NCBI RefSeq assembly: GCF_003334335.1
Contig: NZ_QOWQ01000025.1
Source of the DNA: Escherichia coli
GTDB taxonomy: Bacteria; Pseudomonadota; Gammaproteobacteria; Enterobacterales; Enterobacteriaceae
Length of the DNA stretch: 64,000 bases
Strand: one strand, 5' to 3'
Positions 1,682-56,293 of this stretch are shown piece by piece (positions within the stretch are counted from its first letter, which is position 1; each line of letters begins with the position of its first letter). The position numbers and the translations under genes are program-made. Below the pieces are notes generated by a model. That model did not search any database, was not told where the DNA came from, and saw only the letters and a list, made by a program, of their open reading frames with translations.

Positions 1682-4600
1682 TGCAGGTGTTACCCCCGAG
1701 CAGCACAGGCGGCCCGTCGCGCCTGTTTATTATGCGTCCTGTCGCCACCACGCTGCTGATGGTGGCGATCTTACTCGCCGGGATTATCGGTTATCGCGCC
1801 CTGCCCGTTTCGGCGCTGCCGGAAGTGGACTATCCGACCATTCAGGTGGTCACGCTCTACCCAGGTGCCAGCCCGGATGTCATGACCTCTGCCGTTACCG
1901 CGCCGCTCGAACGCCAGTTCGGGCAGATGTCTGGCCTGAAACAGATGTCGTCGCAAAGTTCCGGCGGTGCGTCAGTTATCACTTTGCAGTTCCAGCTAAC
2001 ATTACCGCTCGATGTCGCCGAGCAGGAAGTGCAGGCCGCGATTAACGCTGCGACCAACTTGTTGCCGAGCGATCTGCCTAACCCGCCGGTTTACAGCAAA
2101 GTGAACCCGGCAGATCCGCCGATCATGACGCTCGCCGTCACCTCAACCGCCATGCCGATGACGCAAGTGGAAGATATGGTGGAAACCCGCGTCGCGCAGA
2201 AAATCTCGCAGATTTCCGGCGTCGGCCTGGTGACGCTTTCCGGCGGTCAGCGTCCGGCTGTTCGCGTCAAACTTAACGCTCAGGCGATTGCCGCCCTCGG
2301 CCTGACCAGCGAAACCGTGCGCACCGCCATTACCGGCGCTAACGTTAACTCGGCAAAAGGTAGCCTCGACGGCCCTTCCCGTGCGGTCACGCTTTCCGCG
2401 AACGACCAGATGCAATCCGCCGAAGAGTATCGCCAGCTAATCATCGCCTACCAGAACGGCGCGCCAATTCGTCTGGGCGATGTCGCAACTGTAGAGCAAG
2501 GTGCAGAAAACAGCTGGCTCGGCGCGTGGGCGAACAAAGAACAGGCCATTGTGATGAATGTTCAGCGCCAGCCCGGTGCTAACATTATCTCCACCGCCGA
2601 CAGCATTCGGCAGATGCTGCCACAGCTCACTGAGAGTCTGCCGAAATCGGTGAAGGTGACAGTGCTTTCCGATCGCACCACCAATATCCGCGCATCCGTC
2701 GATGATACTCAGTTTGAATTGATGATGGCTATCGCGCTGGTAGTCATGATTATCTACCTGTTTTTGCGCAATATTCCGGCGACCATCATTCCCGGTGTTG
2801 CCGTGCCGCTGTCATTAATCGGCACTTTTGCGGTTATGGTGTTTCTCGATTTTTCAATCAATAACCTGACACTGATGGCGTTAACTATCGCCACCGGATT
2901 CGTGGTCGATGACGCCATCGTGGTGATCGAAAACATTTCCCGCTATATCGAAAAAGGCGAAAAACCGTTGGCGGCGGCGCTCAAGGGCGCAGGTGAAATC
3001 GGCTTTACCATTATCTCGCTGACCTTCTCACTGATTGCGGTGTTGATCCCACTGCTGTTTATGGGCGATATCGTCGGGCGACTGTTCCGCGAATTTGCTA
3101 TTACCCTGGCGGTAGCGATTTTGATCTCAGCGGTGGTGTCGCTGACCCTGACACCGATGATGTGCGCGCGGATGCTCAGCCAGGAGTCGCTGCGTAAACA
3201 GAACCGATTCTCCCGTGCCTCGGAAAAAATGTTCGACAGGATAATCGCCGCCTATGGTCGTGGACTGGCGAAGGTGCTGAATCATCCGTGGCTGACCTTA
3301 AGCGTGGCGCTCAGCACGCTGCTGCTTAGCGTTCTCTTATGGGTGTTCATTCCGAAAGGTTTCTTCCCGGTACAGGACAACGGCATTATTCAGGGCACTT
3401 TGCAGGCACCGCAATCCAGCTCCTTTGCCAATATGGCCCAGCGACAACGCCAGGTCGCGGACGTGATTTTGCAGGATCCGGCGGTGCAAAGCCTGACCTC
3501 ATTTGTTGGCGTTGATGGCACTAACCCGTCGCTGAACAGTGCGCGTTTGCAGATCAACCTCAAACCGTTGGATGAACGTGATGATCGGGTGCAAAAAGTC
3601 ATCGCCCGTCTGCAAACGGCGGTAGATAAAGTGCCGGGCGTCGATCTCTTCCTGCAACCAACGCAGGACCTGACCATCGATACTCAGGTCAGCCGCACCC
3701 AGTACCAGTTTACCTTGCAGGCCACGTCACTGGATGCGCTCAGTACTTGGGTGCCACAGTTGATGGAAAAACTCCAGCAACTGCCACAGCTTTCTGATGT
3801 CTCCAGCGACTGGCAGGACAAAGGGCTGGTGGCGTATGTCAATGTTGATCGCGACAGCGCCAGCCGTCTGGGGATCAGCATGGCGGATGTCGATAACGCC
3901 CTGTACAACGCGTTTGGTCAGCGACTGATTTCCACTATTTATACTCAGGCTAACCAGTATCGCGTAGTGCTGGAGCACAACACCGAAATTACCCCGGGCC
4001 TCGCGGCGCTGGATACCATTCGCCTGACCAGTAGCGACGGCGGCGTGGTGCCGTTAAGCTCAATTGCCAAAGTTGAACAGCGTTTTGCGCCGCTTTCCAT
4101 CAACCATCTGGATCAGTTCCCGGTAACGACCATCTCCTTTAACGTGCCGGATAACTATTCGCTGGGCGATGCGGTGCAGGCGATTATGGACACCGAAAAG
4201 ACGCTGAATCTGCCGGTGGATATCACCACGCAATTTCAGGGCAGCACCCTCGCCTTCCAGTCGGCGCTGGGCAGCACTGTCTGGCTGATTGTCGCGGCGG
4301 TGGTGGCGATGTATATCGTGCTCGGCATTCTGTACGAGAGCTTTATTCACCCGATCACCATTCTCTCGACGCTACCCACCGCAGGGGTCGGCGCGCTGCT
4401 GGCATTAATGATTGCCGGTAGCGAACTGGATGTGATTGCGATTATCGGCATTATTTTGCTGATCGGTATTGTGAAGAAGAACGCCATCATGATGATCGAC
4501 TTCGCGCTGGCTGCTGAGCGCGAGCAAGGCATGTCGCCGCGCGATGCAATCTACCAGGCTTGTCTGTTGCGTTTTCGTCCGATCCTGATGACCACCCTGG

Positions 4601-4803
4601 CGGCTCTGCTTGGCGCGCTGCCGCTGATGTTGAGTACCGGGGTCGGCGCGGAACTGCGTCGTCCGTTAGGTATCGGCATGGTCGGCGGTCTGATTGTCAG
4701 CCAGGTGCTGACGCTGTTCACCACGCCGGTGATTTATCTGCTGTTCGACCGCCTGGCATTGTGGACCAAAAGTCGCTTTGCTCGCCATGAAGAGGAGGCG
4801 TAA
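1681..4803 (+). CDS. mdtB: RND efflux transporter MdtB (1040 aa)
   Basis: 1040-aa ORF with the typical RND/AcrB-family layout; the protein is recognisable as MdtB. Confidence 0.95.
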
Positions 4804-14260: not shown

Positions 14261-14290
14261 GCTGCATTTATTAAGGTTATCATCCGTTTC

Positions 14291-14377
14291 GCTGAAAAAC
14301 ATAACCCATAAAATGCTAGCTGTACCAGGAACCACCTCCTTAGCCTGTGTAATCTCCCTTACACGGGCTTATTTTTT
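14291..14377 (+). ncRNA. cyaR: CyaR (RyeE) Hfq-dependent sRNA
   Basis: GCTGAAAAACATAACCCATAAAATGCTAGCTGTACCAGGAACCACCTCCTTAGCCTGTGTAATCTCCCTTACACGGGCTTATTTTTT matches the known CyaR sequence, including the terminator hairpin and U-tail. Confidence 0.9.
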
Positions 14378-14378
14378 A
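14351..14378. repeat. attL core (AATCTCCCTTACACGGGCTTATTTTTTA), overlapping the cyaR terminator
   Basis: Identical 28-mer is repeated at 48032..48059. Confidence 0.85.
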
Positions 14379-14440
14379 CGTACAATAAATTGAAATAAAA
14401 GGATTTATTTCTGGTCACGTCCACACATTGACCACATCGA

Positions 14441-49929: not shown

Positions 49930-50709
49930 CTACACCGTAATTAATTTTACCCGTGTCTTCTGCAATGCCAGTTTATCCACCTCTGATACAGCATCATCGG
50001 TAATAATAATGTCAATTTTTTCGATTGGCAGTACCTGATTAAAACCGCGACGGTTAAATTTCGATGAATCGAGAACGGCAATCACTTTATTAGCGGCGGT
50101 GACCATCGCACCGCTAATCGAATAACCTTCATTAAAGGTCGTAATACCATTAACCGCATCAATACCATCAGCACCGACAAACATTAAATCGGCATTAATA
50201 TCCTGCAGGGAACGTTCAGCAATAGATCCATGCATAGATCGCGTTTTATGGCGGACCGTGCCACCGCAGACGACCAGAGTAATGTCTTTATTTTCGGAAA
50301 GGGCAAACGCAGCCGGGAGACTGTTGGTAATCACCGTGATATTTTTGGCGGTCATTAATCCTTCGGCGATAAGCATTGTGGTACTTCCGCTGTCGAGAAT
50401 AACGGTCATCCCTTCATGGATCATTTTGACTGCCGCCTGCGCTATTCTGTTTTTGGGCGCGCTGGCGAGCTGAAATCGCTCTTTAAACCCGACTTCCTGG
50501 GTCTCGGTTTCACTATTACCGGACATTATTTTCGCCGCACCGCCATGAAAGCGCGTAACCACGCCTTTTTGTTCGAGAAAGCGCAAATCGGCACGGATTG
50601 TCGCTTCCGAGGCAGCAAATACTCCCGCCAGATCCTGAACAAGCACGGTTCCCTGTTCATTCACTAATTGGATGATCTTATTCCTTCGCTCGAATGAATT
50701 CATCGTCAT
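49930..50709 (-). CDS. gatR: DeoR-family galactitol operon repressor GatR (259 aa, intact)
   Basis: Uninterrupted 259-aa ORF at the gatR position. Confidence 0.9.
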   Translation of the reverse strand: MTMNSFERRNKIIQLVNEQGTVLVQDLAGVFAASEATIRADLRFLEQKGVVTRFHGGAAKIMSGNSETETQEVGFKERFQLASAPKNRIAQAAVKMIHEGMTVILDSGSTTMLIAEGLMTAKNITVITNSLPAAFALSENKDITLVVCGGTVRHKTRSMHGSIAERSLQDINADLMFVGADGIDAVNGITTFNEGYSISGAMVTAANKVIAVLDSSKFNRRGFNQVLPIEKIDIIITDDAVSEVDKLALQKTRVKLITV

Positions 50710-50808
50710 TTACCCATATTCAATTGTGGCTAGTGTAAACGAAGGGGGACCATTGGTGAATGATCTGTTTTGCACAATACCGGGCCAGCATCACGCTGGC
50801 CCGCGGTT

Positions 50809-53255: not shown

Positions 53256-53540
53256 TCACCCCTGTAAGATAGTCAGAATTTTATTTTGTAATGCTTCGAT
53301 ACCGACACCAGAAACAAAAGGCATGCCGTGAACTAACGGAATATCGCCAAAACTACGATCCACCCTGGCAGTGGTACATATCAAATGCACACCATCCATA
53401 TAGGTTTCTATTTCATTAACCCGACACTGGATTAATTCAACAGGAATATTATGACTCTGACACAACTCTTTAATTTCTTCCGCCGCCATCGTAGAGGTCG
53501 CAACCGCGCCTCCGCAAGCGACAATAATCTTGCGTTTCAT
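53256..53540 (-). CDS. gatB: PTS galactitol EIIB GatB (94 aa)
   Basis: Length and position match. Confidence 0.92.
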
Positions 53541-53570: not shown

Positions 53571-54023
53571 TTATTCGTCTGAATCTAAAACATACTTTGT
53601 GAAGTATTCCTTTAACTGGGTTTCAGGAAGAGTGATTAGTGTCTCGACGATATCGGGCTGTTGTAACTTGCCAAATAAACAGCGTAAAAGTTTCAATTGC
53701 TGCTGCGGATTTTCCACAATCAACGCAATAACCAACGATACCGCCACGTCGTTATCATCATCCGCTTGCTGAAAATGAACTTTATTTGTTGGCCTTAACA
53801 GATAAATGGCTGACGACTTAGCATGAATCGCCTCACAATGCGGTATTGCAATGGCGTGCTGCTCAAGCATTATCCCGGTAGGGAATTCTGCTTCTCTGGC
53901 AATTAATGCCTGTGGCCAGGTATCATGAACCACACTTTTGGCGAGCATCTCATTACCGATATGGGTTAAAACTTCGCTACGATCGACAAAAGAAATTCCG
54001 CTACGAACAAACAGGTTAGTCAT
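53571..54023 (-). CDS. gatA: PTS galactitol EIIA GatA (150 aa)
   Basis: Length and position match. Confidence 0.92.
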   Translation of the reverse strand: MTNLFVRSGISFVDRSEVLTHIGNEMLAKSVVHDTWPQALIAREAEFPTGIMLEQHAIAIPHCEAIHAKSSAIYLLRPTNKVHFQQADDDNDVAVSLVIALIVENPQQQLKLLRCLFGKLQQPDIVETLITLPETQLKEYFTKYVLDSDE

Positions 54024-54032
54024 ATACCGTCC

Positions 54033-55295
<1,263 letters not shown>

Positions 55296-55296
55296 A

Positions 55297-56187
<891 letters not shown>

Positions 56188-56293
56188 CTATCGTTTATTT
56201 TCGATTTCAAAACATAATGAAATTATTTGTTTTTAAATGTCGAGATAACGATCACAAAAACGACAATATGAAAATTAATCCAGAATGACAGGC

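Follow-up and report, generated by a model that had tools for sequence, protein, structure and literature searches.

An uninterrupted gatR downstream of the galactitol genes in an Escherichia coli strain, very probably encoding a functional repressor

The minus-strand open reading frame next to gatD in the 64,000-nucleotide stretch of Escherichia coli DNA analyzed here (the window) is very probably (about 0.93) a wild-type, functional gatR that closes a gatYZABCD-gatR cluster at its 3' end and encodes a DeoR/GlpR-family repressor. The intact condition is already known, being the ordinary wild-type state of a well-known gene, and the disruption by IS3E, which is well documented, is peculiar to K-12 strains of the MG1655 type. 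The constitutive gat expression data obtained with MG1655 should not be assumed for the window strain, which is expected to induce the gat operon only with galactitol present.

The open reading frame listing gives an ATG start, a TAG stop at 49930-49932, and neither internal stops nor frameshifts between them (Table 1). The reading frame opens with ATG-ACG-ATG, and the second ATG corresponds to the start used in RefSeq. In public data, GatR is common in both the 259-aa and the 257-aa form, with 1000 contigs or more for each; the exact protein of the window is likewise found on at least 1000 contigs, in some sources under the name "galactitol utilization operon repressor." The matches to the HTH_DeoR and DeoRC families show that this is a genuine gene rather than a chance reading frame. 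Also, the C-terminal part matches the structure of a DeoR C-terminal domain (PDB code: 7l6l; E 1.9e-11). The uninterrupted 259-aa DeoR-family frame described in an earlier, sequence-only reading of this DNA is borne out by the listing, by both domains, and by a gap-free alignment to K-12.

Table 1. Positions in the window of gatR, its parts, and the surrounding features of the gat locus
Feature	Position	Strand	Basis
REP-like palindrome between the convergent gatR and yegS stop codons	49885-49918	.	Folding, z -3.9 on one strand and -5.8 on the other
gatR coding sequence, uninterrupted; 259 codons, counted from the first ATG, and a TAG stop	49930-50709	-	ORF listing, alignment to K-12/HS
DeoR C-terminal sensor (effector-binding) domain, DeoRC, residues 85-238	49996-50457	-	Pfam PF00455, E 4.1e-51
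Patch of 34 nt, codons 157-168, with 9 of the 20 K-12/HS differences, all synonymous	50206-50239	-	
GTC triplet, IS3E duplication site of MG1655, between codons 101 and 102; unoccupied here	50405-50407	.	
DeoR-type helix-turn-helix DNA-binding domain, HTH_DeoR, residues 8-60	50530-50688	-	Pfam PF08220, E 2.9e-16
Second in-frame ATG of gatR; RefSeq/PGAP start, 257-aa form WP_001295426.1	50701-50703	-	
G+C-rich hairpin, 9 pairs, no T-run, just past the gatD stop in the 99-bp gatD-gatR spacer	50781-50803	-	Folding, -21.1 kcal/mol, z -2.1
gatD, galactitol-1-phosphate 5-dehydrogenase, intact, 346 aa	50809-51849	-	
gatC, PTS IIC component, intact, 451 aa	51897-53252	-	
gatB, PTS IIB component, intact	53256-53540	-	
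gatA, PTS IIA component, intact	53571-54023	-	
gatZ, tagatose-bisphosphate aldolase subunit, intact	54033-55295	-	
gatY, tagatose-bisphosphate aldolase subunit, intact	55324-56178	-	
Predicted gatY promoter, TCGACA / 18-nt spacer / CATTAT (56243-56214), with CRP-like half-matched site	56214-56256	-	Promoter scan

The gene lies directly downstream of an intact gatYZABCD and is convergent with yegS, an order common to K-12, HS, MDR_56, and ARS-C301. The minus-strand neighbors correspond in order and length to gatD, gatC, gatB, gatA, gatZ, and gatY of K-12, with fbaB beyond them and yegS on the opposite side, and all six structural genes of the window are full length. In contrast, gatC of MG1655 is a pseudogene because of a 2-bp insertion, which the window gene lacks. 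The sequence-only reading placed the frame before gatD; this stands in window coordinates but not in the sense of transcription, where gatR is downstream of gatD, both being on the minus strand. Loss of gat function despite an intact repressor does occur in natural isolates. For example, MDR_56, whose gatR DNA is 100% identical to that of the window, carries an internal stop in gatZ (positions 3415-4677 of the compared stretch), whereas gatZ of the window is intact.

Between the yegS and gatR stop codons, two strong hairpins are predicted at 49850-49925, and one of them, GCCGGATGCGGTG...CCTTATCCGGCAT, is REP-like in the appearance of its sequence. The scan for intrinsic terminators returned none in the gatD-gatR spacer or in the 3' flank of gatR, and the folded hairpins on either side of the gene are not called terminators because they have no T-runs.

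A comparison with MG1655 confirms the earlier statement that gatR of K-12 is split by an insertion sequence. In the RefSeq record (NC_000913.3), gatR (b4498) is annotated as a pseudogene in two pieces with IS3E, carrying insE5 and insF5, between them. The element is 1258 bp long, is flanked by a 3-bp GTC target duplication, and interrupts the gene between codons 101 and 102, near the beginning of the sensor domain, a site at which the window has no insertion. One place in a published study (PMC5850726) names the element as IS1, which is rejected because the RefSeq record and the other papers give IS3E. The first K-12 fragment aligns to nucleotides 7-305 of the window frame and the second to nucleotides 306-780, with no gaps. 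Moreover, if IS3E and one GTC copy are removed from the K-12 gene, a 780-nt frame is obtained whose protein is identical to that of the window over 259 of 259 residues. The alignment against K-12 gatR that had been proposed as a check was thus run, and it contains no gap, frameshift, premature stop, or amino-acid difference. At the DNA level, the identity between window and K-12 is 97.4%, the 20 differences being all synonymous.

The gatR DNA of strain HS is the same as the IS3-free K-12 gene, so that HS and the window share the protein (WP_001295426.1 in HS, 259/259 identical) as well as the 121 bases upstream of the start codon, and differ by the 20 synonymous changes, 9 of which fall in a single 34-nt patch. 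This comparison bears directly on function. Replacement of the MG1655 pseudogene by the HS fragment from yegS to gatD was reported by Sousa et al. to give regulated gat expression (PMC5850726). In mice, constitutive mutants of the restored strain later arose through new IS insertions in gatR, and whether gat expression is regulated or constitutive affects the evolution of E. coli in the mouse gut (PMC5850726). The literature also supports the claim that the IS disruption makes gat expression constitutive in MG1655: constitutive expression in this strain has been ascribed to the insertion in gatR (PMC5850726, bioRxiv 10.64898/2026.01.05.697630), and the disrupted repressor has been made responsible for high or constitutive expression in strains of the MG1655 type (PMC3045373, PMC4072538). 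The identity of the protein and of the 121-base upstream segment to those of HS, together with the complementation of MG1655 by the HS fragment, gives good support to the proposal that repressor control is likely retained in the window strain. In a CRISPRi study, the natural strains LF82 and CFT073 were found to benefit from the silencing of gatR.

By the expected mechanism, the N-terminal helix-turn-helix of GatR would bind operator DNA at the gatY promoter and keep the galactitol PTS and catabolic genes off. Then, the C-terminal DeoRC domain would bind an inducer formed on galactitol uptake, and repression would be released. Other DeoR-family repressors respond to phosphorylated intermediates, and by analogy the inducer of GatR would most likely be one as well. 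CRP probably adds catabolite control of the gat genes. For the window strain, inducibility is inferred, as are the place of the operator, the nature of the inducer, and the promoter of gatR; the details of operator and inducer are drawn from what is known at the level of the family.

The pattern of the differences from K-12 and HS is itself informative. With 23% of sites synonymous, the occurrence of 20 synonymous and 0 non-synonymous changes would have a probability of about 2e-13 under random change, and this excess indicates that the coding sequence of gatR is under strong purifying selection. The differences in the 34-nt patch are clustered to a degree reached in 0 of 20000 permutations over third codon positions, and the patch looks like a short recombination tract. 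Among 5111 matching records, about 900 are at least 99% identical to the window gene, which suggests that its allele is probably a minority type.

The region upstream of gatY is the presumed target of GatR. The scan returned a single promoter-like site there, with the intrinsic terminator of fbaB further upstream, and a CRP-like motif (TGTGA-N6-TCTCG) would overlap the predicted -35 hexamer. Its sequence is well conserved across five strains (the window, MDR_56, ARS-C301, HS, and K-12). A search for repeats in it gave no convincing candidate for a GatR operator, and the E. coli operator was located neither by the sequence searches nor in the literature examined. The word TTTTCATAT was also considered and rejected as evidence of an operator: its 24 matches across the window, compared with 17.8 expected, are not significant, and two of its three exact copies overlap the ATG-AAA starts of gatY and gatZ.

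This region matters for the strongest rival reading, in which gatR is intact but the circuit does not work, either by a change in the gatY operator or promoter or because gatR is not expressed, so that the gat genes would be constitutive or uninducible. The window differs from K-12 and HS at about 10 positions over about 130 bases upstream of gatY, with a small indel further upstream, and an operator change is for this reason formally possible. Among the differing positions are one in the -35 hexamer (TCGACA versus TCGATA), one just past the -10 hexamer, and two in the leader; a few changes, that in the -35 hexamer among them, are private to the window. Moreover, the consensus scan found, at its thresholds, no promoter for gatR in the gatD-gatR spacer. 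Nonetheless, the core, which runs from the CRP-like site up to the gatY start codon, is nearly invariant in the five strains, the spacer upstream of gatR is that of HS, whose fragment functions (PMC5850726), and the 20 synonymous and 0 non-synonymous differences point to a protein maintained by selection. A non-working circuit is therefore considered highly improbable. Somewhat less so, although still unlikely, is an elaboration of the functional reading in which the repressor is identical, but the gatY changes (a -35 hexamer nearer to consensus, the base by the -10 hexamer, and the two leader bases) could shift basal or induced gat expression quantitatively relative to HS-type strains; in the same elaboration, and as a separate matter, the 34-nt patch of gatR could mark a short recombination import.

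In a second rival reading, the frame would not be GatR but another DeoR-family paralogue, for instance AgaR or SrlR. In a profile search, the best NCBIfam models are indeed those of AgaR (232.9 bits) and SrlR (226.3 bits), and the RefSeq product name is merely generic; NCBIfam contains no GatR-specific model, which accounts for that name. However, neither score reaches the curated equivalog cut-off, which is 260 bits for AgaR (NF040755) and 350 bits for SrlR (NF007753). Also, the frame occupies the place of b4498 between gatD and yegS, and its protein is identical to the product of b4498 freed of IS3E. On the cut-offs, the synteny, and this identity, the paralogue reading is rejected as scarcely conceivable. 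Because the top models stay below their cut-offs and a GatR model is absent, the frame is identified as gatR by synteny and by direct comparison with the named K-12 gene. That the apparent integrity is an artefact, an overlooked frameshift or missense change inactivating GatR, is just as remote, since nothing was found in its favor and the alignments to HS and K-12 contain 0 gaps and 0 amino-acid differences, by which hidden missense damage is rejected.

The likeness of GatR to these paralogues is nonetheless considerable. AgaR and SrlR, DeoR/GlpR-family repressors of the N-acetylgalactosamine and glucitol PTS operons, share the HTH_DeoR and DeoRC domains with the window GatR, as well as strong full-length profile similarity, yet with scores below the cut-offs. 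The operon and the substrate differ, whereas the expected logic would be common, namely control of a PTS and catabolic operon by a repressor that responds to a sugar phosphate. GatR of Salmonella Typhimurium is also a gat repressor, likened here by description, in a different species and with a different organization of the gene cluster. According to a report citing Nolle et al. 2017 (PMC7972205), it represses the gat promoters via a helix-turn-helix motif, and deletion of the motif abolishes repression.

The generality of the intact gene was addressed with complete E. coli genomes. A gatR match is present in 5110 of 5426, in all cases at 95% identity or more, and in 4757 of the 5426 the match is full length, by which is meant one hit spanning 80% or more of the gene; the counts reflect coverage, so that point frameshifts or disruptions go undetected. 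A partial copy only is found in 353 genomes. Nearly all of these are accounted for by the 346 genomes in which a 66-base probe across the K-12 gatR::IS3E junction is covered. Three junction genomes were sampled (ER1709, one from a conjugation assay, and one whose description reads "laboratory developed"), and they look like laboratory or K-12-derived strains. The 4757 full-length and 346 junction genomes lead to the conclusion that E. coli normally has an intact gatR and that the IS3E disruption is a feature of laboratory lineages. With the gene intact in so many genomes, the finding informs on K-12 and not on the window strain. Even within K-12, gatR is reported to be undisrupted in at least one strain, NCM3722 (PMC3045373).

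A break of another kind was observed in BL21(RP) (NZ_CP084683.1), a laboratory B-strain derivative, where gatR is truncated at nucleotide 232 of the frame and joined to a truncated tynA (positions 4001-4549 of the compared stretch). This rearrangement is independent of the IS3E event of K-12.

Elsewhere in the window, the interval from cyaR to yegR contains a full-length P2-like (Peduovirus) prophage of about 33.7 kb (14351-48066). It is bounded by 35-nt direct repeats at 14351-14385 and 48032-48066, and the left one overlaps the cyaR sRNA gene (14289-14374) at the 3' end of that gene. The site holds just the cryptic remnant PR-X (ogrK) in K-12. The prophage carries an integrase gene (46939-47952, plus strand) and a frame for a gpA-like replication endonuclease (42103-44415, minus strand), and over about 84% of a 24.7-kb stretch it shares 96-97% identity with Yersinia phage L-413C, phage R18C, and related phages. 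Inside it, at 24231-24720, three tandem repeat copies with a spacing of about 132 nt are 81-87% identical and probably belong to a tail or tail-fibre gene. Finally, positions 43-170 match the Rfam SIB RNA family (73.9 bits), the Sib antitoxin sRNA of ibs/sib type I toxin-antitoxin loci, which agrees with the presence of an ibsA region upstream of mdtA in strain HS.
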